A stretch of DNA of 64,000 bases from an uncultured Nitrososphaerota archaeon (GCA_963701075.1 OY969559.1:1851939-1915938), one strand, 5' to 3'. Shown: positions 3,494 to 15,971, counted from the stretch's first letter. Notes: generated from the sequence alone by a model not told the origin. A program made the numbers and translations.

Positions 3494-3551
3494 GATTTAG
3501 AAAAGTAGTTGGCTCAATATGGAATTTTTGGTTATGAAATATTTGACAGGT

Positions 3552-3809
3552 TTAGCTAATCAGTTGTTCTTCCATCTCGTCTGAGTGGTGGACGGTTTCT
3601 GGCTGATCTGCTAGTGATTCTTTTTCCTTTTGCTCTTCAAGTTCCCTTTTCAAATGAGTCGTTATATAACCTGCAATCTCATTTTTTAGTCCTTTGGATC
3701 TTACTATTGCAACTTCGTTGAGTAGTATCTTATTTTTTTTAAAATCAGTGCCGAATTCTCCTTTATAAGTAGCCATTAGTTCCGTGGAAATTCGTCTGAC
3801 TCTATTCAC
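3552..3809 (-). CDS. rps17e: 30S ribosomal protein S17e
   Basis: FGTDFKKNK...SKGLKNEIAGYIT; start placed at GTG 3809. Confidence 0.9.
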   Translation of the reverse strand: MNRVRRISTELMATYKGEFGTDFKKNKILLNEVAIVRSKGLKNEIAGYITTHLKRELEEQKEKESLADQPETVHHSDEMEEQLIS

Positions 3810-3840
3810 GGTATCGATTGGCAGAAGGGGTATTTTATAC

Positions 3841-4596
3841 CTATATACCAAGATATGAGTTTGTATTTTTTTCTATGATTTCAAGCGTCTCATCGTATCT
3901 CTTACCTAGAATTTGCGATGCACAAAAAAGAACGCTGGGCATGAAAGTTATTTGTGCAGTCTTGTATCCAAAACATTTTGAGAACTTTACTGGTCCGTCT
4001 GTTTCCAGCAAGATCTTGCTAGGTTCCGTTTGAGAAAGAAGAATCTGTTTGTCTTGCGAGTATACCATTGCAGGGCCATATGAAACATCACTGCCTATAT
4101 CCATGGCTTTTTGTAGTTGCTTTTTGTTTCCTGCAAACCAATGTAACAGAACACCCTTGAGATGATACGATGGTAAAATCGAGAATATCTCCTCTAATGT
4201 TCTTCTTGAATGAATCGATATGGGCTTTTCAAGTTTTTCTGCAAGGGACAGCATCTTCTCAAAAACACTAACCTGTCGGTTAAAACCAGCGTCATCAGAG
4301 ACATATGTTTTGTCAAGACCGATCTCTCCTATGCCGGATATTTTATTTGAGTTCTCCATGATCAATCTCACTACTGATTCCAGATCACCATTGGCCTTCT
4401 CTGGATGTATGCCAAGAAAAGGCAGAACTAGAGGGCTTTGTTCGCTCAGGTTCAGCGTTGCAATTGAACTAGAGTAATCCATGGACACACAGCATGCCCT
4501 TAGTCCCATCTTATCCATGGCCGTAAGCATGAACTGCAATTCAGGTTTGAATTCGTCATCTGACAGATGGATATGAGCATCAGTCAACCAGTTCAT
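3841..4596 (-). CDS. tatD: TatD family hydrolase/nuclease
   Basis: DAHIHL, GIHP, IGEIGLD, IHSR, LLETDGP. Confidence 0.93.
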   Translation of the reverse strand: MNWLTDAHIHLSDDEFKPELQFMLTAMDKMGLRACCVSMDYSSSIATLNLSEQSPLVLPFLGIHPEKANGDLESVVRLIMENSNKISGIGEIGLDKTYVSDDAGFNRQVSVFEKMLSLAEKLEKPISIHSRRTLEEIFSILPSYHLKGVLLHWFAGNKKQLQKAMDIGSDVSYGPAMVYSQDKQILLSQTEPSKILLETDGPVKFSKCFGYKTAQITFMPSVLFCASQILGKRYDETLEIIEKNTNSYLGI

Positions 4597-4692
4597 AGTG
4601 TACTATAACCACAAAATAGTGTGTATAAATCGATTCCCAGATACTCTTTTTTCTACTCGAAGTCTTTTATCACAGGCATATGGAGTTAAAAT

Positions 4693-4914
4693 ATGACAAC
4701 ATCTGAATTTGGCCTTTCTGCGATATACAGGATCCTAAAAAAGGCAGGAGCCGACAGAGTAAGCGACGAGTCGGCAAATGAACTGAGAAGAATATTGGAA
4801 GAGGTTGGAACATCCATTGCCAAGAGTGCAGTTGAGATGTCTACACATGCAGGTAGAAAAACAATCAAGGCAGAGGATGTTAGGCTAGCTGCAAAACAGT
4901 TTTCAAAATTCTGA
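4693..4914 (+). CDS. archaeal histone
   Basis: RILKKAGADRVS...HAGRKTIKAEDV histone fold. Confidence 0.95.
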   Translation: MTTSEFGLSAIYRILKKAGADRVSDESANELRRILEEVGTSIAKSAVEMSTHAGRKTIKAEDVRLAAKQFSKF

Positions 4915-4924
4915 TCTAAAAGAT

Positions 4925-5236
4925 TTAATTGTTCATAGGAAACCTTTTTGATTGCGGTGAGGTGGCAGAGCGGCTATGCGTTCGCCTGCAAAGCGAATCT
5001 ATAGGGGTTCGAATCCCTTCCTCACCTTTTAATTTTTGATATAAAATAGCCTCAGCGTTACTGTTTTTCGTAACAACATTACGGAATTCTGTAATGCCAC
5101 TTTTCTCTATCAATGGCAGTTCAAGCATGTAAAAATCCTTTAACTTGTTCCTGATCCGGTGCTCTAGAACTCGTCTGTAGGTTTTTGATGTTTCTAGCCT
5201 ACCTGTTAGATAATCACGTTCAGTTTTACTTAGCAT
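4925..5236 (-). CDS. integrase N-terminal fragment Int(N)
   Basis: reads through att; shares peptide KGEEGIRTPIDSLC in frame with Int(C). Confidence 0.85.
   Translation of the reverse strand: MLSKTERDYLTGRLETSKTYRRVLEHRIRNKLKDFYMLELPLIEKSGITEFRNVVTKNSNAEAILYQKLKGEEGIRTPIDSLCRRTHSRSATSPQSKRFPMNN
4956..5027 (+). tRNA. tRNA-Cys(GCA)
   Basis: acceptor GGTGAGG/CCTCACC; anticodon arm TTCGC-CTGCAAA-GCGAA; T-loop TTCGAAT. Confidence 0.95.
4986..5031 (+). repeat. att site, left copy (3' half of tRNA-Cys)
   Basis: CTGCAAAGCGAATCTATAGGGGTTCGAATCCCTTCCTCACCTTTTA, identical to 12358-12403. Confidence 0.95.
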
Positions 5237-5240
5237 GCAC

Positions 5241-5612
5241 TCACTCTAATGTCCTCACAAGATTCTCAAGGAATTTTTCAATAGTGATTTCTTTACCATT
5301 CTTTCTATGTGGATAAATATCCCAAATATCACCCTCAACTAACAGTGCCGGTTGTTCTTTACCAAAGAATATCCCACTTTGTCTATTAGTTCCAAAAGAT
5401 CTCCTTACTTCATATTTATTGAAGACGGAAGGACCGATAACTTTCCCATAGGCGTCTAAACGTTCTGAATCATTCATTTTTGAAGTATCAAGTATTTTGT
5501 AATCTAGTTTCTTTGATTTTTTTAGTTTATCTAGCAATTGTATTATTTTATTCACGTCAGAACGGACGTTTGTTTCTTTAGTGCTTATGTATAATGAAGC
5601 ATTTATTGGCAT
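5241..5612 (-). CDS. hypothetical protein (element cargo)
   Basis: 123-aa ORF ending 4 nt before Int(N). Confidence 0.7.
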   Translation of the reverse strand: MPINASLYISTKETNVRSDVNKIIQLLDKLKKSKKLDYKILDTSKMNDSERLDAYGKVIGPSVFNKYEVRRSFGTNRQSGIFFGKEQPALLVEGDIWDIYPHRKNGKEITIEKFLENLVRTLE

Positions 5613-5652
5613 TGCACTACCACACCCCTACCACACCAGCACATATAAAGAT

Positions 5653-6810
5653 TCATGCCAATAACTCCCTTATTCCTATAAATGCCTCCTTTATCTTTGA
5701 TGCAGAATTCGGTGTCATCGATTTATCCAAAATGAATTTGTTAGATAAAAACAAAATATCTCTATCAATGAATCCGTTTGCTTTATGCAAGTAAAAATGA
5801 TCTTTCTTCATTTCAAACTTTTCTTCGTCACCAGAAACATAGATTTCAGTTATCACACAAAATGCAATGTGTTGATATTTGTAAAGATATTCTTCCAATC
5901 TATTAATTGTGTTATCTATATTATCTCGTAGAAATGAAAAAGTATAATCTCTTATTATGATGATATTTAGATGATCTTTTGGTAGTTGTTTTTGTTCTGT
6001 TCCCATTTTTGTAGCCATTCTATAAATTTCATCTACCTGATATGTTGGTCCAGAAAAACCCCCTGTCATATTCCTTCTAGATGCCCAATCTATCAAGAGA
6101 TCTCTCTTAGAATCCGTTGCGATGACTAATTCTATCACATTTTCTTCTATTATTTCCTCAAAACCGGATGACTTGCATCTTTCTAATGCATTGTCTATCT
6201 TTGAGAGTATATCCTTTAGATGAGGGTTGGACAGATATTTGTGTATTCGTCCCGTAAAAAGTAACGTAGGTTTACTATTTGAAGTCGTAAGAAACAATTT
6301 TTTAGATATTACATCAAAGGTTTCAGTAACCTCTCTTGCTTGTACACTTTGTCCTAACTCAGTGATTTCTACAAAAAATTCTTCTTTGGTTTCAGGATTT
6401 AAAACTTTAAGATCTGGCACTTTTCCAGTATCAATTTTCGGATAGAATTCAACATTTAATCCGGCTTTGAGAAACCTATTTGCTATGTCTAATTCAAAAA
6501 GTATCTCAAGAAATTTTTCTCTATTTTTCAATTTATCGACTAATTTTCTTGAATTATTACAACGTGACACGTTTTCTATAGCATCATAGAATTCTACAAA
6601 CCATCGTCGTGACGACGGATTATGGAACTGGTATATGTAGTTCCAAACTATCGGATGGCCCTCTTGTGCTAGGACTGGGAGTGAAATTCCAAAGAAACGT
6701 TTGAGATGACGTAGAGATGATTTTGCTTTTTCTTTTTCTGTTTGAGTCAATCCCTCCTCTGTATCAATATGCGTTATCCAATAATCCCAATCTTGAATCT
6801 CAAATGACAT
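5653..6810 (-). CDS. putative PD-(D/E)XK-like nuclease
   Basis: E..IA..F...G..VE......KVPDLKV......FFVEITEL pattern. Confidence 0.55.
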   Translation of the reverse strand: MSFEIQDWDYWITHIDTEEGLTQTEKEKAKSSLRHLKRFFGISLPVLAQEGHPIVWNYIYQFHNPSSRRWFVEFYDAIENVSRCNNSRKLVDKLKNREKFLEILFELDIANRFLKAGLNVEFYPKIDTGKVPDLKVLNPETKEEFFVEITELGQSVQAREVTETFDVISKKLFLTTSNSKPTLLFTGRIHKYLSNPHLKDILSKIDNALERCKSSGFEEIIEENVIELVIATDSKRDLLIDWASRRNMTGGFSGPTYQVDEIYRMATKMGTEQKQLPKDHLNIIIIRDYTFSFLRDNIDNTINRLEEYLYKYQHIAFCVITEIYVSGDEEKFEMKKDHFYLHKANGFIDRDILFLSNKFILDKSMTPNSASKIKEAFIGIRELLA

Positions 6811-6828
6811 ACGATCACCTAAGCAAAC

Positions 6829-7660
6829 TCAGATTTTAGTTGCCTTTAAGAATTCAATTAACTTGTATGAAGTTTCACAGTACACACGAAATAGCATTAA
6901 ATTTGAAAACATCTCCATTCTTTCAATTTTTATGCCAGTTGGATGTCCTGTATCATTTCTCAATCTTCGTATGAGATTAAGTATTGGACTCGTTTTTGAG
7001 TCAAAATCATCTACCATATCACGTGGGAGGTTAGACTTGATTGTAATTTTGATTGTATCAGTCACTAATTGAATTCGTCTATTAATTGTCTTATCTCTAG
7101 TCTTTGCAAATTCATCTTTTATTTTTTGAGACGTAATAGAATCCATCATTGAGTCGTACAATATATCAAAGATGGCCTCAGCAGATACTCCCAACATAAC
7201 TGCTGATGCAAGAAAATTTCCTCGAAGGAATGTTTCTAAACTTTCGATAAGATAGATTTCTGCAGTTGTATCGAATTGAGGAGATTTTGACTTTATAAAT
7301 TTAATATATCCGTCAGGATCATTAGGAATTCCTTCTGTATTTGTCAATACTTTTTTCCCGTATGATGTTATTGACATAAATGGCGGATTTAGATTCAGCT
7401 CTATCCAGACCCCATCTTAGGACACCTTGTTGTAAAAGTGCATTTACCATATCTAATACATGCTCTACATTTTCTTCTGGAAGTGGTGAATGACCACCAA
7501 GATATGTTACTCCTGCGTCTTTCAGAATTCCTTTGGATAATGCAAGATTGTATACATCATGCATGAGAGAACCCATTTGTACACTTCTAGTAGAATTAAG
7601 GTAATTCGTTTTTAATACTTCAAAAAGTAGTTGTTTTGTTGTTTCAAAATCCACAATCAT
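6829..7660 (-). CDS. putative HEPN-domain protein (one apparent frameshift near 7396)
   Basis: ORFs 7322-7660 and 6829-7377 join on removing 1 nt; YLIESLETFLRGNFLASAVMLG helix plus RNDTGH (RxxxxH). Confidence 0.65.
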
Positions 7661-7681
7661 TCCTACAATTTAATGTTAATA

Positions 7682-7755
7682 AATTGCATAATACTGATAT
7701 TTCCGGCTATGAACTAGGTTAGCTAGAACTCGTTCGTGTTGCTACGTGGAGGATT
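7682..7755 (+). repeat. 74-bp imperfect direct repeat, copy 1
   Basis: aligns ungapped with 9156-9229; core TTCCGGCTATGAACTAGGTTAGCT identical. Confidence 0.9.
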
Positions 7756-7777
7756 TCCTTATAGTCATATATTTTAT

Positions 7778-9088
7778 CTAACTTAACTTACAAATCCCAT
7801 TTGCAGACAATAATGTTTTTCTAATTGTCTTAGAATCAATTTTTCCTTCTCTCATCTTAATTATTGCAGAAAACAACTCAGTAGTAGTAAGTAAACATAT
7901 TGAGAGTGGTTCTGCTGCGTTTATGGTTTTTTCTGTAAACGGTGCACCTCTTTTGCTAGGATACATATCAAAAAAATGATTAGCAACTAGTATAGCCTTT
8001 CTTTCCTTCTTATCAGTGGTTTCGTCCACCAGATAGTGTAATAATTGACGGAATTTCTGTATGTCTATACTTTCTTTTTGTCCTGTAACTTCTATAACTG
8101 CTTCTTCCTTTCCATAAATTGCAATCCAATCTTTATCTCCCTTTCTTTTCATAGTGAAACCAATTTCTTCGAATGCGGATCTTACAGATTCCTCTAGCGG
8201 AGTACCATGTTCATAAAGTAATTCTTTGATGAACGATATTTTTTCCAATTTCTCTTTTAGAATATCTTTTTCTGAAGTTAGTTTTTTTATCTTTTTTTCA
8301 TTCTCGGCAATAGAAGAACTAATCTTTGCTTCATCAGGAACAGTAAAATCTTTGATCCATTTAGGTGATGGATTTTTTTCTCCCTTTTTTAATGACCTGA
8401 TTGCATTATTTAGCAAGATCTCTGAAAATCTTTCATCATTAAGAGGAGGCAAGAATATCACAGTGCCTTTTCCTATGGATAGTTGAATTGAAATTGGTTT
8501 TTTTGCTTTGTTTACAGCCAGAATTTTGAGGTTTTCCTTCGGTATATTCTGTAGATCTTTGTACAAATCAAAATATTCTTTGTCTAATCTAATATCATCA
8601 ATTTTTTCAAAATATGCTTCCCAGTAGATTTCATTCATCTTAAGATACGGAGAAAATTCTGTTTGAGTAGTAACAATTGCTTTATTTCCACTTCCCTGTA
8701 CCAGCATATTTTTAAAACTGAAAATATTATTTTGTTTAAAAGGTAACCAATCATAATTAGACAGATAGGCAGTTGTATGTCCTTTTCTTGAATTGAAGTA
8801 GTCACAACTCATACCACAAACAGGACGAATAATACAAACTACTGTACCTCCGTTTTCTAACAAAATGGCTATCTCTCGTTTAAATCTCTCTACATCTTTT
8901 TCATAACTGAATAATTCATCCTCAGGAAATTTTTCATAATTCCAAGGCATATCACAACGAACATGCATTGTGCGATAAGTATCAACGATGACCAGATCAT
9001 AATTGAATGCAGAATTATTTGATATCCCATTTTCTACATCTACATTTTCATTTTCAGTTTCTATACCTAAGGATAGAATTTTGATCAA
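7778..9088 (-). CDS. protein with coiled coil and C-terminal Mrr-like restriction endonuclease domain
   Basis: LEESVRSAFEEIGF..KDW......VIEVTG.....KFRQL...KAILVAN. Confidence 0.6.
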   Translation of the reverse strand: MIKILSLGIETENENVDVENGISNNSAFNYDLVIVDTYRTMHVRCDMPWNYEKFPEDELFSYEKDVERFKREIAILLENGGTVVCIIRPVCGMSCDYFNSRKGHTTAYLSNYDWLPFKQNNIFSFKNMLVQGSGNKAIVTTQTEFSPYLKMNEIYWEAYFEKIDDIRLDKEYFDLYKDLQNIPKENLKILAVNKAKKPISIQLSIGKGTVIFLPPLNDERFSEILLNNAIRSLKKGEKNPSPKWIKDFTVPDEAKISSSIAENEKKIKKLTSEKDILKEKLEKISFIKELLYEHGTPLEESVRSAFEEIGFTMKRKGDKDWIAIYGKEEAVIEVTGQKESIDIQKFRQLLHYLVDETTDKKERKAILVANHFFDMYPSKRGAPFTEKTINAAEPLSICLLTTTELFSAIIKMREGKIDSKTIRKTLLSANGICKLS

Positions 9089-9155
9089 CAGATCATTTCA
9101 AAACAACTATCTAATGAGGATTCTGTAATTTGTTAAAAATTGAACGATGGATTCG

Positions 9156-9229
9156 AATTGCATAATGCCAATAATTCCGGCTATGAACTAGGTTAGCTGA
9201 AACTCGTTTCTGTTGCTATGTGGAGGATT
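9156..9229 (+). repeat. 74-bp imperfect direct repeat, copy 2
   Basis: matches 7682-7755; includes the 3' end of ORF 9188-9550. Confidence 0.9.
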
Positions 9230-9550
9230 CTCCGGAGCTTGTTTGCTAAAAAGTTCCCTTACTGCATCTGCAAACCAAACATTGTCTTTACGTGCTTTAC
9301 GTCTATCAGCCCTTTCAATGACACCTGAGTACAGTAGGATTTTGCTAGCTTCAATTCCTGCTCTAGCCCATCTGACTTTGCCATAATTATCTAATTTTTT
9401 TGAACGAATCTTTCTTTTTGATAGTCTTAGCATCTGTCTAAGGTATGAAACAGCTTCATCTTCTGGATTTGAGTAATGATCAAGCTTGAATAAGTCATCA
9501 TCTTGATGTTTTACTAAAAACTTTGAATTATCTGCTGAGTTTTCATCCAT
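9188..9550 (-). CDS. hypothetical protein (element)
   Basis: 120-aa ORF with a basic central segment. Confidence 0.65.
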   Translation of the reverse strand: MDENSADNSKFLVKHQDDDLFKLDHYSNPEDEAVSYLRQMLRLSKRKIRSKKLDNYGKVRWARAGIEASKILLYSGVIERADRRKARKDNVWFADAVRELFSKQAPENPPHSNRNEFQLT

Positions 9551-9556
9551 TTTTTA

Positions 9557-9844
9557 TCACCCACTACGGAAAATGGCTTCTTTCATTTCCTTCGTTCTTT
9601 TATTCAGTATTGCACCAAATTCAGCTAATTCATCATCAAAGTTTTTTCCTCTCATATTAACAAGATAGTTCCTAAAGTCAGTGTAGATATGACCCCATGC
9701 AAATCCTAAAGCATAGTCTCCTTCTTCCTTGATTTGTAATTCTTTTTTGATTTCTCGGATTTCTTTTATCCATGATGGAATGGACTCGACCGTACGGTCA
9801 ATGAGTTTTTCAAGAGTTCCACGTTCAACAGAGTCTAGAGCCAT
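9557..9844 (-). CDS. hypothetical helical protein (element)
   Basis: ORF-track 9557-9898; likely start MALDSVERG. Confidence 0.65.
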   Translation of the reverse strand: MALDSVERGTLEKLIDRTVESIPSWIKEIREIKKELQIKEEGDYALGFAWGHIYTDFRNYLVNMRGKNFDDELAEFGAILNKRTKEMKEAIFRSG

Positions 9845-10246
9845 ACTTGTTTCTCGATAATGATCACAGTTCCCCATTCTCAATGTTTCGATTTGCATAT
9901 TATTTCAAATCCATCTAACAGCCTACTCACATACGTATTTCTGCAATACAAAAAATTAATTTTCACAGGGTTTTGTTTCCTAATTTCTTATAATTTGGTT
10001 CCCTCGTAGACACTCATAACATGAATTATTTTCTTTAAATATTCATATCAGTTAAACGGCGTTTAACCAATATGAGCACAGAATGTTAAAATTACCAACG
10101 TTTTGTATTAATCTCATTCTTTTTCTGTTTTTACCCTTTTTCTCTTTTTGTTACATGTTATTTTATTATCTTGATGATAATACTGGATACATCTTGATCT
10201 AATGGGTTGCCTAACTCTTTCTATAAAATCGAGGGGTGTTATCATA

Positions 10247-10936
10247 TCATGATTGAGAAAAGTTGTCATAATCTGTAATTTTCTTATTGTTTTTAGAAGT
10301 TTTGTCTTCAGGTTCTACCTGCATTTCTGTTAAATCTATTGGATGTAACCTGTGTTCACCTCTTATTTGTGGACGGTTTTTCTTTATTTTCGGTATTTGT
10401 TCTGGCTTTAGAATTCGTTTTTCTCCATCAGGCATAACTACTCGTATTTTCATGCTTTCATGGTCAGCACAATCCAATATCTTTTGATTCAATGTGATTC
10501 TTGTCAGTTTACGTTTACTCGTTTTTGAATGAGAGGGATACGGCCCTTTTATGGAATGAAAAATGAGAGTTTTATCGTTCAAGTCAACATCAAGTTTCTC
10601 TCCATCTAACATTATTGTGTTATCGTCGTTTATCACGTATTCATTAGGATGTTGTTGTTCGTATTCGTTTATGACTATAGCTGTAATTCTAAAATTCTGT
10701 GGCTTTGATGAATATTCAATAAACCATTTTTTTGCTTCTTTTACAGTTACAAAACACATAGACCATATCCTTCGAATTGATATTTGATAAACATTATTTT
10801 CATAAATGCTGTACAATCTACGGGACATAACTTGAGTTTTTGGCCTTGTCAAAGTTGGGACATGATTAGTATGGTCTGTAAATCTGTTGGATTTGGAATA
10901 ACAATGATTTCCAAAACATAGCGTTTGGATCTCCAC
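10247..10936 (-). CDS. hypothetical protein (element; true start probably MSRRLY near 10828)
   Basis: 229-aa ORF whose 5' part overlaps the neighbouring gene. Confidence 0.6.
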   Translation of the reverse strand: MEIQTLCFGNHCYSKSNRFTDHTNHVPTLTRPKTQVMSRRLYSIYENNVYQISIRRIWSMCFVTVKEAKKWFIEYSSKPQNFRITAIVINEYEQQHPNEYVINDDNTIMLDGEKLDVDLNDKTLIFHSIKGPYPSHSKTSKRKLTRITLNQKILDCADHESMKIRVVMPDGEKRILKPEQIPKIKKNRPQIRGEHRLHPIDLTEMQVEPEDKTSKNNKKITDYDNFSQS

Positions 10937-11474
10937 CTGAAATGACTACTATGGTAGAGTTAGATATCCAATTCTGACGATCTAATACTTTAGAAATATC
11001 ATCATTAGAAATCCCCCTCAACTGATCAGCCAAACAATGCAATGCTGCTAATGCAGCAAAAGTATCCATAACTGTAGTATATGTTATTTTAAACTGTTTT
11101 TCCTTTAACTCATGTTTCAATTCATTATAGGCTTCCCACCATTCCAAGTCTCTTGTAAACGGTGTAAATTGTAATTTATGGAGAATTGAAACTATCTTAA
11201 AATTTGACAGCACTGTTTTCTCATTTATTTTTCTAATTAATGCCGGAATCCCACCATCGATAATGATATTGCATCTACTAGAGATTAGTCTTGTTACTGC
11301 CTCTATCTGTGCCCCACAAACCAACATCATGTTTAGTAATCTTGGTGAGTAAATTTCTCCTGTTCTTTGACGTTCATAAGGCACAACCTCATCAAAGTTT
11401 AACATTTGTTTTTCAAGATCATTGTGTAATTTTCCTAAATTCTCTAAATCTGCTTGGAACCATTCATCAACCAA
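10866..11474 (-). CDS. putative HEPN-like/Abi-like protein
   Basis: YSPRLLNMMLVCGAQIE helix and WWEAYNELKH motif. Confidence 0.5.
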   Translation of the reverse strand: MVDEWFQADLENLGKLHNDLEKQMLNFDEVVPYERQRTGEIYSPRLLNMMLVCGAQIEAVTRLISSRCNIIIDGGIPALIRKINEKTVLSNFKIVSILHKLQFTPFTRDLEWWEAYNELKHELKEKQFKITYTTVMDTFAALAALHCLADQLRGISNDDISKVLDRQNWISNSTIVVISGGDPNAMFWKSLLFQIQQIYRPY

Positions 11475-11528
11475 TTTGGTTATTTCTTGCTGAATTTTGT
11501 ATTAAGGGTATCCAATTGTTATCAACTT

Positions 11529-12403
11529 TCAAGAAGAATTCCTGAGGCTCCGAGTTTCAGCAACTATAGGATTCCACGTATCTATCCATTTACTCTTATG
11601 TTCATACATAGAAGGTAAAAAGTAATGTTTCTGAGATACATTACCTCTCCTACCTTGCATGAATTCAGCCAACAAAGGATCAACCTTACTGGCATTTATT
11701 GTAAAATTCAACTTTCGTAGATATCGTATTTCAAAGCCAAGTTTCTGCTTGTTGATTTTAGTATAGACAAGTCTGCTCATTTTGAAGTTTATTTTATCAT
11801 GTAATTTAGGATGACAGAAAACTGCATTTGCCTTCTTTGTTCCTCTATCCCAGAATAACTCCATTATTCCGTCATTGCAGATGTTTGAATGATTGTTAAA
11901 GGCATTTACTGCCTCTGTTGTTCTAAGACCACTTACTAATGTGAATAATCCAAATATCCTGTATCGTTCAGGTAGTTTGCCAATAGAGTCTAAAACTTGT
12001 TCTAACTTCATGTTATTTGCCATAAGATAGTTATTTACAGACGGCTTCCTAGACCATTTGAGTTCCTTTTTCTTTAGCCAATGTGTGAATTGTTCATGAA
12101 AATTACTATCGTTTTTTATGTCTAAGAACCGTGTAAGATTTGCTACTGACTTTAACACGTCTAGTTTCTTTCTAGTGTCATTCAATGATACAAGTTCATT
12201 AGAGAATCCCAAATGATGATATTTCTTGGAATAACTAAAAATGATACTTGCATATTTTTTGTTTTTGTTTGAGACAAGCCAGTTGTAGTAATCTTCCCAG
12301 TTTAGATCTCTTATACAAGTCCTAAATTGTTCTATTGTAGTATTAGATTTTGCCACACTGCAAAGCGAATCTATAGGGGTTCGAATCCCTTCCTCACCTT
12401 TTA
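11529..12403 (-). CDS. tyrosine integrase catalytic fragment Int(C)
   Basis: LVSGLRTTEA (R), RYLRK, FMQGR, QKHY (Y); begins in att. Confidence 0.9.
12358..12403 (+). repeat. att site, right copy (duplicated tRNA-Cys 3' half)
   Basis: identical to 4986-5031. Confidence 0.95.
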
Positions 12404-12457
12404 TGATATCATAATAACCTACTTTACTAAATACACCAAGTTCTACCAAATTCAGAT

Positions 12458-14212
12458 TTGGCCGATAGAAGTAATGGATTGCTAGAATACATACCAGGGG
12501 CAAGACCGCTTTTACAGCAGTCATCTAATGGACAACCGTTAGAGGGGTTTGCCCAGAACATACGGGATAGTGTAAGAGAGTACGCTGAAGATGCACAAAA
12601 TGAAGTTGAAAAAGGCCATAATTTTCTTCAATGGGTGCTTACAAGAGTATTTGAGGCAACAGAAGATGATGCAACCGATGCAATTATCGATGGACCAAAC
12701 GATCTGGGCATAGACGCATACCTGCCAGTTGACTTTTCTGAAGATAAGATCTATCTCTTTCAATCAAAATATGGAACTTCGCATTCCATGGAAGCCATTG
12801 CCAAGTTTAGACAAGACGTGCAAAGTTTACGCACTAGGGACATTACAAAGATGCGGCCCGAGATTGCACGTCTAGTAACACAGATCCAAGAAAAAAATCT
12901 GAAAATTGAGTGTGTTTATGTTACTGATCAAAAAGTTGATGAGGAAAATTACGAGTCTGTTGAGATACACGATATAGATACAATAATCCAAAAACTTTGG
13001 GATAGGATAAAAAAACCTGCAGTAGGAAAGAAGGCGGCAATAAGGCTAGAGAGCAAACTGAGGTATCAGAACACCCTCCTTGGAATCTTGAAGTTAAGAG
13101 AACTAACTAACTTTGTAACAAAAAATAAGGATTACGTCTTTGAATCAAACATAAGACAGTGGATGCAGTTTAAAACGACTGTAAATAAGGGCCTTCGCGA
13201 GACTTTACAAGAATCGCCTAACAAATTCTTTTACTACAATAATGGCATAACCATAGTTGTAAACGATTTTGAAGAACTTGAGGATAATTCAATACTTTTA
13301 CACGCACCACAGATAGTCAATGGGGCACAAACATCTAATTCAGTATTAGATCATGCAAAACGAACTCACAATTTGGATGGAAGCATCACTGTCACCATAA
13401 TCAAAGCAGCAGACGAATTGGACCAGAACAACATTACAAAGTACAGAAATTCACAGAACGCAGTAAGAGGAAAAGATCTGGTTTCTTTGATGGACTTTCA
13501 TAAATCTATAAAATCTCAGATGGAGAATTTCAGATATTTTTATGAAATACAAGCAGGTTCATTTGATAGTAAAGCAAAATCACAACAATCAGAATTCATT
13601 GGTGATCCCATATACAACAAGTATCTTCCAGATAATCACAAAAAAGTCATTGTTGCCAAAGATGCCATACAGGCATTTGTAGCAGGAATTGAGCAGAGAC
13701 CTACTGAATCATACAGCTCACCTGCACAGTTCTTACCAAGAGGAAGCAAGTATGACGAAGTATTCAATGAAAAACTAAAAGATGACTGTAGGCTATTGTT
13801 GTATCCTTATCTCGTAAAAGAATATGCAAAAAAGACGTTAAATTATGGAAAGAAGGGAGGCCACAAAACAAAAAGATATGCGACCCTCTTTTTTGTTGCA
13901 GTTTACTTTAAAATTCTTCATGAGAAAATAATACTTACCAAAGGCGACTTTAAAGAAGATATTGCAAAACTAGAGCCAATTTTCAAGAGTGTCAAGCTAA
14001 ACCAGAGAATTTTAAAACTTACAGACACCGTCGCGACAAAATTTCTAGAAGATACTGTTGTTGACGATGAGATGACGGCTGCAAATACATACCATAACTT
14101 CTTCTCACATCATGTATGGCTGGATTCCATGATACGTGTTATTGAGAAGAAGATAAAGCAAGAAGAAGACGAGATTGCCAGTATACGAAAAATAGTGCAA
14201 GATCTTTTCTAA
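12458..14212 (+). CDS. AIPR family protein (abortive infection phage resistance)
   Basis: DGPNDLGIDA, FQSKY, FESNIR, FFYYNNGITIV, PQIVNGAQT, RNSQN. Confidence 0.9.
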   Translation: MADRSNGLLEYIPGARPLLQQSSNGQPLEGFAQNIRDSVREYAEDAQNEVEKGHNFLQWVLTRVFEATEDDATDAIIDGPNDLGIDAYLPVDFSEDKIYLFQSKYGTSHSMEAIAKFRQDVQSLRTRDITKMRPEIARLVTQIQEKNLKIECVYVTDQKVDEENYESVEIHDIDTIIQKLWDRIKKPAVGKKAAIRLESKLRYQNTLLGILKLRELTNFVTKNKDYVFESNIRQWMQFKTTVNKGLRETLQESPNKFFYYNNGITIVVNDFEELEDNSILLHAPQIVNGAQTSNSVLDHAKRTHNLDGSITVTIIKAADELDQNNITKYRNSQNAVRGKDLVSLMDFHKSIKSQMENFRYFYEIQAGSFDSKAKSQQSEFIGDPIYNKYLPDNHKKVIVAKDAIQAFVAGIEQRPTESYSSPAQFLPRGSKYDEVFNEKLKDDCRLLLYPYLVKEYAKKTLNYGKKGGHKTKRYATLFFVAVYFKILHEKIILTKGDFKEDIAKLEPIFKSVKLNQRILKLTDTVATKFLEDTVVDDEMTAANTYHNFFSHHVWLDSMIRVIEKKIKQEEDEIASIRKIVQDLF

Positions 14213-15474: not shown

Positions 15475-15897
15475 GTAGCCTTACTAAATTTTTAATTTTA
15501 AAAATCCCCAGTTTTGAAATTATTTGTAATTTTTAAGATAGTCATTTCAGGTCTTTGGCATAATTTCGAAAGTATCACGTTATAGAACATATCACTTACA
15601 AAAAGAAAAAGATGCAATGGATCTTTTTTCTAAAGTTTTTGACAAATTTTTTAGATCAGAATTAGATCTGTAGGTCAGGTATAAGACAATCGACAGATCT
15701 ATAAAGGCGTAGACTGGCTTATGTTTGGGGAGTATAGACGTGACAGAAGTAATAATATGGTGGAAAGGACTTGCAAAGGAACTAGAGTTAGACATAGAAA
15801 CTCTCAGTGACGGACAAGAAAGAAAGAAACAATTTTGAATTTTTTGCCAGTTCTGTACTGTAATAGGTATTTAGTTTTTTGAAAATTTAATTTTATG

Positions 15898-15971
15898 AGC
15901 CTCGAGTGGGATTCGATCCCACGGCCTAACGCTTACGAGGCGTTCGCTCTACCAGGCTGAGCTATCGAGGC
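15898..15971 (-). tRNA. tRNA-Thr(CGT)
   Basis: acceptor GCCTCGA/TCGAGGC; anticodon arm AACGC-CTCGTAA-GCGTT. Confidence 0.93.

Follow-up and report, generated by a model that had tools for sequence, protein, structure and literature searches.

A probable cryptic element integrated through an SSV-type integrase into the tRNA-Cys gene of a soil ammonia-oxidizing archaeon

Introduction

What is the 7.4-kb block of DNA that lies between a tRNA-Cys gene and a partial copy of it in an uncultured archaeon, and how did it get there? The question is raised by a window of 64,000 nucleotides from a Nitrososphaerota genome (GCA_963701075.1, OY969559.1:1851939-1915938; all positions below are counted from the first letter of this window), in which direct repeats enclose the block and the open reading frames (ORFs) at its two ends resemble parts of one integrase gene. 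We are very confident that the block is foreign DNA inserted into tRNA-Cys of a soil ammonia-oxidizing archaeon, and equally so of the mechanism by which it was integrated. The overall explanation that we favour, and regard as highly probable, is a cryptic element that entered through an integrase of the Sulfolobus spindle-shaped virus (SSV) type, whose attachment (att) site, attP, lies inside the integrase gene int.

In systems of this type, the att site is about 40-50 bp long and identical to part of a tRNA gene, and the active site of the integrase follows the consensus R...KxxR...Y, as set out in parts of a review (PMC8371274, section 8 for the consensus). Passages of the same review and of Badel et al. 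2020 (PMC7253208) present these "suicidal" integrases, which are split when the element integrates, as a trait of hyperthermophilic archaea. For thaumarchaeal genomes, the relevant passages of Krupovic et al. 2019 (PMC6563490) describe a class of cryptic integrated elements that lack viral, casposon or conjugative signature genes.

Boundaries of the element and empty sites in relatives

The block is framed by two 46-bp direct repeats (Table 1) that are 100% identical, with the identity ending exactly at both repeat edges. The left copy overlaps the tRNA-Cys(GCA) gene, which also matches Rfam RF00005 with 59.6 bits, and begins two bases before the anticodon. The insertion measures 7,372 bp and occupies the 3' part of this gene, which is intact after integration and is the sole tRNA-Cys among the 35 tRNAs that ARAGORN finds in the genome. 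The host genome is a single contig of 1,915,938 bp, in which the att sequence occurs in exactly two copies and the C-terminal integrase fragment in one; among all its tRNAs, only tRNA-Cys has a 25-nt exact partial duplicate. The guanine-cytosine content is 0.32-0.34 inside the block, compared with 0.38-0.41 in the flanks. Because the repeat is exact over 46 nt, coincides with the 3' part of a tRNA gene, is accompanied by this compositional drop and is matched by empty sites in relatives, we do not regard it as a product of chance. The first-pass annotation of the window had placed 46-bp repeats at these positions and expected a circular form of 7372 bp, and computed excision of the block gave a circle of just that size.

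Table 1. Features of the element and its insertion site, in window coordinates.
Feature	Coordinates	Strand	Basis
int(N), putative integrase residues 1-83 (5236..4986), then tRNA-antisense read-through to the stop at 4925	4925..5236	-	translation
tRNA-Cys(GCA), integration target (attB)	4956..5027	+	ARAGORN, Rfam
attL, 46 bp, tRNA position 31 to 4 nt past the 3' end	4986..5031	.	repeat search
Cargo ORF, 123 aa, no significant family match	5241..5612	-	
Cargo ORF, 385 aa, N-terminal helical region and PD-(D/E)xK-like core	5653..6810	-	predicted model
Cargo ORF, 182 aa, weakly HEPN-like	6829..7377	-	PF18735 below cut-off
Cargo ORF, 112 aa, overlaps the 182-aa ORF	7322..7660	-	
74-nt direct repeat, copy 1, upstream of the 112-aa ORF	7682..7755	.	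88% identical to copy 2
Cargo ORF, 436 aa, GATase1/ThuA-like domain, coiled coil and FokI-like PD-(D/E)xK domain	7778..9088	-	predicted model
74-nt direct repeat, copy 2, upstream of the 436-aa ORF	9156..9229	.	
Cargo ORF, 120 aa, no significant family match	9188..9550	-	
Cargo ORF, 113 aa, RHH-like hint only, E 0.075	9557..9898	-	
Cargo ORF, 229 aa, no family match	10247..10936	-	
Cargo ORF, 202 aa, no Pfam match	10866..11474	-	
int(C), putative catalytic part (12357..11529), after the attR peptide and 41 host-flank codons supplying an ATG	11529..12524	-	PF16795
attR, 46 bp, partial duplicate of the tRNA-Cys 3' part	12358..12403	.	repeat search

The left flank, consisting of a histone gene and tRNA-Cys, was found in 57 of the 61 genomes of the genus, the host's own included. 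We compared the window with 11 same-genus loci from other genomes (G and L numbers below denote genomes and loci), and the 7.4-kb block was absent from all 11. Seven of these loci (G077, G031, G078, G034, G006, G032 and G033) are precise empty sites in which the sequence ending at 5031 runs directly into that starting at 12358, with 44-68 nt of overlap between the two flank alignments at the one att copy. Three others (G028, G019 and G036) have one att copy, followed by an unrelated insert of 0.6-0.7 kb and then the same right flank, and the G001 locus stops in the tRNA. The genomes G034, G028 and G019 are unpublished; without them six precise empty sites remain, on which the conclusion stands. 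The empty sites in same-genus genomes identify the block as an insertion, and this comparison of the locus among relatives, which the first-pass annotation had put forward as a check, came out in favour of its proposal.

Two end ORFs as fragments of one integrase

The two end ORFs, of 103 and 331 amino acids (aa), run across the repeat in one and the same frame and share the peptide KGEEGIRTPIDSLC, which the repeat encodes on its antisense strand. In-silico excision joins 5236..4986 to 12357..11529 and yields a frame of 1,080 nt, or 359 codons, with no internal stop. The N-terminal fragment, int(N), has no Pfam match. The C-terminal fragment, int(C), matches PF16795 (Phage_integr_3, "archaeal phage integrase") over residues 172-302 of 331, with an E-value of 9.7e-10 and 39 bits against a cut-off of 27. 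When int(C) was compared by tblastn with 50,697 phage and virus records, only four matches were returned, all of them Sulfolobus spindle-shaped viruses, at about 31% identity over residues 133-246; the match falls on the annotated integrase in two SSV5 records and on a "hypothetical protein" gene in the other two.

Alignment with the SSV5 integrase (BLASTP, E 7e-10, 31% identity over 124 columns) pairs SGLR with SGIR, RGTKK with RGSKR, RYLRK with KYIRK and KHY with KHY. In a 24-sequence alignment of the family, the int(C) residues R145, K174, R214, H244 and Y245 do not vary, and the box begins with either R or K; numbered along the joined protein, the five are R229, K258, R298, H328 and Y329, and the box begins with R295. 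The published consensus is thus recovered in R229, R295-x-x-R298 and Y329, the box opening with R where the consensus has K. Judged by sequence, the two ORFs represent the N- and C-terminal pieces of a single tyrosine integrase of the SSV ("suicidal") type, and since the att site lies inside the gene, int is split. The first-pass annotation had reported the peptide shared by both ORFs, the joined 1080-nt ORF of 359 aa and an SSV1-type integrase. The peptide and the open frame with its catalytic residues were recovered as described there, and the assignment is borne out by the PF16795 match above the cut-off, the motifs aligned with SSV5 and the position of att within the gene.

A phmmer search of the PDB paired int(C) residues 11-65 (about 12160-12325) with a clostridial neurotoxin binding-domain chain at E 0.0023; the segment is rich in N, K and Y and of low complexity, and we judged the match to be due to chance. 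On the host side, the int(C) ORF continues for 41 codons beyond attR (12404-12524, minus strand) up to the ATG at 12524, where it overlaps the start of an AIPR ORF on the opposite strand.

A family of split integrases at several tRNA genes

A protein search with int(C) returned 165 proteins at E ≤ 1e-5, and the 120 of these that were listed are 196-313 aa long. Among the matches listed, some are named integrase or hypothetical protein and come from Ca. Nitrosotalea, Nitrosotenuis, Nitrosopumilus and Nitrosarchaeum. Several members of the family have N-terminal extensions translated from the antisense strand of tRNA 3' parts, among them the same tRNA-Cys peptide. Among 401 genomes sampled in the class, 18 contain an int(C) match at E ≤ 1e-10 and 11 a close relative (E ≤ 1e-60); no open frame longer than 331 aa was found among the 11 close relatives. 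Four genomes (G184, G188, G214 and G047) show stops or frame breaks in int(C).

Using a script, we located att repeats in six relatives' loci, which delimit sibling elements at four kinds of tRNA gene. One lies in tRNA-Cys (G014, 11.6 kb, L019 983-12601, att 42 bp), two in tRNA-Thr(CGT) (G112, 13.2 kb, att 43 bp; G191, 12,235 bp, att 20 bp), one in tRNA-Gly(TCC) (G137, L049, 13.4 kb, att 43 bp) and two in tRNA-Gly(CCC) (G189, 5.3 kb, att 42 bp; G214, L051, 5.1 kb, att 26 bp). In five of the six, the tRNA-proximal ORF resembles the int(N) of the window, with 48-60% identity over the first 44-103 residues: residues 1-60 are 48-57% identical to the corresponding ORFs of L047, L048 and L049, while the match extends over residues 1-44 in L050 (50%) and 1-103 in L019 (60%). 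No int(N) match was found in the G214 element. The siblings' int(C) lies at the end of the element opposite the tRNA. Excision in silico produced an open ORF of 347-365 aa in four siblings (G112, G191, G137 and G189), hence in five of seven elements when the window is included; that of G214 gave 288 aa and that of G014 no open frame. In a seventh relative, G071, int(C) lies at an att copy of tRNA-Cys, and the contig ends inside the element. These layouts and excision results indicate that the split arrangement is a property of the family, that its targets have been switched among tRNAs and that some copies are decaying, a pattern also described for Thermococcales in passages of Badel et al. 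(PMC7253208).

At least one sibling has already been catalogued, since the L048 element shares a 20-nt att string, the target and the 12,235-bp size with NitAR2-E4 of PMC6563490. The pertinent passages and tables of that paper give the NitAR2-E4 integrase only as arCOG01244 Integrase/Recombinase and do not mention that it is split.

Two siblings deserve separate mention. G014 belongs to the same genus as the host and has a different, 11.6-kb element in the same tRNA-Cys, with a joined integrase frame that is not open. In the G214 element, a BamHI-family endonuclease is split over two overlapping ORFs (L051 3446-4109) beside an intact N6/N4 methylase, and int(C) contains a TGA stop; this element is decaying.

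Cargo of the element

Nine cargo ORFs (eight if two of them are fused) lie between the integrase fragments, all on the minus strand like int. None has a significant match in Pfam, PADLOC, PHROGs (E ≤ 1e-3) or NCBIfam, and scans of these libraries detected no capsid, packaging, Cas1, pPolB, conjugation, Rep, primase, helicase or partition family. Fusellovirus core genes, such as those for capsid proteins and a DnaA-like ATPase, were likewise not matched by any cargo ORF in PHROGs or Pfam, libraries that divergent small structural proteins could escape. The first-pass annotation had recognized no capsid, conjugation or Rep gene and had called the element cryptic; the scans agree on the former, and with no viral, conjugation or replication family recognized, the label suits it. 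The element combines an integrase and an att-bounded insertion with the absence of any signature gene in the library scans, and is an addition to the thaumarchaeal cryptic integrated elements, a kind that is already known.

The two largest cargo proteins were examined through predicted structures. The 436-aa protein, which has 11 homologues besides itself, none of them annotated, was modelled with a mean predicted local distance difference test (pLDDT) score of 83 as an N-terminal GATase1/ThuA-like domain, a long helical linker and a C-terminal nuclease-fold domain. In structural comparisons with VIA-align, residues 1-237 matched the ThuA-like protein 1t0b with a Z of 10.7, and the C-terminal domain matched the FokI cleavage domain 2fok (Z 13.4, root-mean-square deviation 2.7, 139 aligned), AF1548 (Z 11.6) and the small subunit of R.BspD6I (Z 11.3); Foldseek placed the model near FokI (E 1.1e-4) and STM3548 (4.3e-5). 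On this predicted model, the C-terminal domain has a restriction-endonuclease-like PD-(D/E)xK core. Among nine sequences E333 and Q348 are invariant, and no invariant lysine follows E333.

The 385-aa protein belongs to a large uncharacterized family with 561 representative clusters at E ≤ 1e-3, and the ESM Atlas clusters that most resemble it come mainly from bacteria. Among 38 family sequences, D133 (in "PD"), E148, Q275 and N357 are invariant. Its model has a pLDDT of 93.8, and the best VIA-align match is the CdiA-CT nuclease 4g6v (Z 8.9, root-mean-square deviation 3.4, 126 aligned) at the head of a list made up mostly of PD-(D/E)xK nucleases (CdiA-CT, AF1548, BsmI, XisH, Cdn1, SduA, NucC and Can2). 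Foldseek returned no match to it at E ≤ 1e-3. The model therefore gives a moderate indication of a PD-(D/E)xK-like nuclease fold.

The 182-aa ORF contains the motif RNDTGH (Rx4H) and matches PF18735 (HEPN_RiboL-PSP) at E 0.019 with 15.3 bits, below the cut-off of 28.4. Contigs from three public runs of one study (X1, X3 and X4, of which X1 is possibly the source sample) are one base shorter at 7396, and deleting one base anywhere in 7385-7404 merges the 112-aa and 182-aa ORFs into a single open frame of 276 codons. As far as sequence can tell, the 112-aa ORF is probably the N-terminal part of the same gene as the 182-aa ORF (276 aa if fused), and the base at 7396 in the window may be an assembly indel or a real strain frameshift.

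The 74-nt repeat is found only inside the element within the host genome. It has no Rfam match and no fold better than those of shuffled sequences (z -1.4 to +0.6), and it may be a duplicated regulatory block. The 202-aa ORF is the only cargo gene common to a sibling, with 53% identity over 213 columns to an ORF at L049 13414-14052 (G137). We considered it as AbiV-like and rejected this, as it has no similarity to the AbiV-like ORF that stands beside its L049 homologue. The only homologue of the 385-aa protein in genome contigs lies in locus L055, where the other proteins of the element are absent beside it and the neighbours have no informative Pfam match; the question of a conserved multi-gene system rests on this single locus.

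Sibling cargo was assigned with Pfam and PADLOC. The G014 element carries AbiTii (E 2e-20), PDC-S34 (E 1e-58), a Fic domain and a trypsin-like protease; that of G112 a complete type I restriction-modification (R-M) set (HsdS, HsdM and HsdR) and an HNH endonuclease; that of G191 a C5 cytosine methylase, a PIN domain and an RNase H-like protein; that of G137 HEPN_AbiV, a protein with HD and OB domains and a D5-like primase-helicase; and that of G214 a BamHI-like endonuclease over two ORFs and an N6/N4 methylase, while nothing was recognized in G189. R-M or abortive infection (Abi)-type genes are thus present in five of the six siblings and a recognizable replication gene in one. No virion family exceeded the Pfam cut-off in the siblings, the only approach to it being P9_TM in one of them (24.8 bits against a cut-off of 25).

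The nuclease folds, together with the defence-type genes of the siblings, suggest that the cargo of the window could be a defence or toxin-type nuclease payload as well. Given that no cargo protein is significant in any curated family, we rate this reading a little below even.

Proposed mechanism

Under the mechanism that we propose, the free form would be a 7.4-kb (7,372-bp) circle with attP within codons 70-85 of int. The integrase would recombine attP with the identical 46 bp of tRNA-Cys, attB, which runs from the anticodon loop to the 3' end, and the anticodon stem would probably be the symmetric core of recombination, by analogy with other tRNA-targeting integrases. Integration would rebuild tRNA-Cys at attL, a restoration that matters because the genome has no other tRNA-Cys gene. 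The int(N) fragment (residues 1-83) would stay by the tRNA, and int(C) would land 7.3 kb away, reading in from the host-flank ATG at 12524. Excision would now require an intact related integrase acting in trans, or residual activity of the fragments. No second member of the integrase family was found in the host genome; for pTN3 and SSV2, excision in trans by related incoming elements is reported in passages of PMC8371274. We consider it doubtful that the window copy can still be mobilized. The cargo would provide no replication or virion functions, and would comprise two PD-(D/E)xK-fold nucleases and a HEPN-like protein.

A wider view, which we think unlikely at present, is that mesophilic ammonia oxidizers host a widespread family of elements with suicidal integrases, which act as exchangeable defence-gene cassettes, mostly without a replication module and dependent on helpers. 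A conserved split integrase, retargetable among tRNA genes, would be joined to wholly different nuclease, R-M or Abi payloads. As all known copies are split, they would spread only where a related intact integrase, a helper element or a virus is present, and would in that respect be satellite-like. The integrated int(C), given a start codon by the host flank, may keep partial function.

Alternative explanations

Could the block instead be a dead relic, which integrated once, was trapped by its split integrase and persists as a strain-specific genomic island? We take this possibility seriously, while placing it well short of even. It agrees with the split integrase and the lack of a second family copy to act in trans, with the absence of a partial duplicate at any other tRNA, and with the decay seen among relatives, where int(C) is interrupted in the four genomes named above and the joined ORF is closed in G014 and truncated in G214. 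Against it, the two att sequences of the window copy match at 100% and neither the fragments nor the joined frame is interrupted, which points to a recent event or a maintained function; in addition, excision in trans is reported in parts of PMC8371274 for pTN3 and SSV2. An integrated small plasmid comparable to pTN3 and pT26-2, able to replicate by itself once excised and with its initiator hidden among the 229-, 202-, 120-, 113- and 123-aa ORFs, seems improbable to us. SSV-type integrases do occur on plasmids as well as viruses, according to passages of PMC8371274, the sibling in G137 encodes a D5-like primase-helicase, and five cargo ORFs have no assignable function. Nevertheless, Rep, primase, helicase and partition families were not detected in the element of the window, relatives of the integrase were absent from 72,556 plasmid records, and only one of the six siblings has a recognizable replication gene.

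Small archaeal viruses often have capsid genes that cannot be recognized. This, and the fact that the nearest named relatives of the integrase are fusellovirus integrases, would fit a provirus of a small fusellovirus-like archaeal virus with structural genes too divergent to recognize. We nonetheless consider a provirus very unlikely, because no cargo ORF has a PHROG match at E ≤ 1e-3, the IMG/VR viral contigs contain no relatives of the integrase or the 385-aa protein, the two largest cargo proteins have predicted nuclease folds, and the siblings contain R-M and Abi genes, with no virion family reaching the cut-off. Finally, the idea that the tRNA 3' part was duplicated locally, with no recombinase involved, and that the block is ordinary chromosomal DNA has nothing in its favour beyond the bare existence of the repeat. 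The repeat is in frame within each half of a PF16795 integrase, relatives have a precise empty site, and other genomes show this layout at four tRNA genes, so that we attach almost no probability to this explanation.

Several observations nevertheless weigh against the cryptic element with an SSV-type integrase that we prefer, or against parts of it. The first KxxR box residue is R, not K, in the integrase of the window, and searches of the PDB with the protein sequence and with a family profile did not retrieve the solved SSV1 integrase domain, the profile giving nothing below E 0.74. No unsplit relative appeared in any search: the listed 120 int(C) homologues all fall within the 196-313 aa given above, int(N) had no match among proteins of 182-2000 aa, IMG/VR viral contigs contained no int(C) relative by single protein or by alignment, and PLSDB (72,556 plasmid records) contained none of the integrase. 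A free replicating form of the integrase family is consequently undocumented. Four public soil-metagenome runs from two studies contain the element at ≥99% identity, and their contigs, compared with 4500-13000, gave no joints and break inside the 46-bp repeat (one contig of 46 nt is the repeat itself), which makes them uninformative either way on the attP junction and an empty attB. As to the cargo, the best Z of the 385-aa model, 8.9, sits in a range where chance arrangements occur; the defence reading draws on folds and siblings, with no cargo protein significant in PADLOC, Pfam, PHROGs or NCBIfam; and the five small uncharacterized ORFs could hide a replication or structural function.

Relation to known systems and significance

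The integrase of the window shares with those of SSV1/SSV2-type Fuselloviridae the PF16795 domain, an attP inside int, the partition into Int(N) and Int(C) and the aligned R...[K/R]xxR...Y residues, and its 46-bp att likewise matches part of a tRNA gene, here tRNA-Cys. It differs from them in its identity of about 31%, confined to the catalytic core (compared with SSV5), and in the R at the first box position; its host is a mesophilic soil ammonia oxidizer and not a hyperthermophilic crenarchaeon, and no fusellovirus gene was recognized. The split on integration, the variable target tRNAs within one family and the pseudogenized fragments resemble those described for pTN3/pT26-2 in passages of Badel et al. 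2020 (PMC7253208). However, the latter are large plasmids with known backbones in hyperthermophilic Euryarchaeota (Thermococcales), whereas the integrase of the window has no match in the plasmid collection.

Among thaumarchaeal elements, NitEve-E3 is the one that the catalogue notes, in the passages concerned, as having an SSV1-like integrase split on integration (PMC6563490). Going by its description there, it is like the element of the window in its thaumarchaeal host, tRNA target, 46-nt att and lack of viral genes. It differs in being 11.2 kb long, in lying in tRNA-Glu of Nitrososphaera and in carrying MCM, compared with 7.4 kb, tRNA-Cys and no recognized replication gene here. Closer relatives are NitAR2-E4 and the siblings in G014, G112, G137, G189 and G214, which have the same integrase family, Int(C) 55-68% identical, and sizes of 5-13 kb. 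Their cargo is almost wholly different, only the 202-aa ORF being common to one sibling, and apart from the sibling in tRNA-Cys their targets are tRNA-Thr(CGT), tRNA-Gly(TCC) and tRNA-Gly(CCC), compared with tRNA-Cys in the window. Tables S2 and S3 of the thaumarchaeal catalogue (PMC6563490) contain no integration into tRNA-Cys.

A full-text search of a limited literature collection found no paper on suicidal or SSV-type integrases in Nitrosopumilus and its kin or in ammonia-oxidizing archaea; broader searching there yielded just the works cited here and a 2025 preprint, whose integrase passages do not mention splitting. The finding is modestly notable because split integrases have been described mainly from hyperthermophiles, and it is an extension rather than a surprise because the known mechanism is unchanged. 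With it, the self-splitting mechanism is documented base-precisely in a soil ammonia oxidizer, together with empty sites in relatives. What is added is a picture of the family in mesophilic ammonia oxidizers, which uses at least four tRNA targets and carries defence-type payloads, with nuclease-type cargo and no unsplit copy seen so far. These elements form a tractable set for asking how trapped elements are mobilized again and how nitrifying archaea, which matter for the nitrogen cycle and are genetically hard to manipulate, exchange defence genes. The att/Int pair might also serve as a tool for site-specific integration in ammonia-oxidizing archaea.

Neighbourhood of the insertion site

Directly outside attR lies an AIPR/AbiU-like abortive-infection gene (12458-14212, plus strand; PF10592 E 3.6e-55, PADLOC AbiU 1.2e-42). 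This gene adjoins tRNA-Cys at every same-genus locus in the comparison, so the insertion lies next to a conserved defence gene. At a distance of 3.5 kb downstream is a gene for tRNA-Thr(CGT) (15897-15971, minus strand), the kind of target occupied by the siblings in G112 and G191; it has no partial duplicate in the genome and appears unoccupied. Several same-genus genomes contain a variable segment of 0.4-0.7 kb between the tRNA-Cys att and the AIPR flank (L019 12604-13007; L013/L014 about 800-1495, from unpublished genomes; L017 about 889-1464; L021 about 3517-3890), which is missing from the window and which in G014 holds a 123-aa ORF. These segments may have been left behind by earlier insertions at this hot spot.

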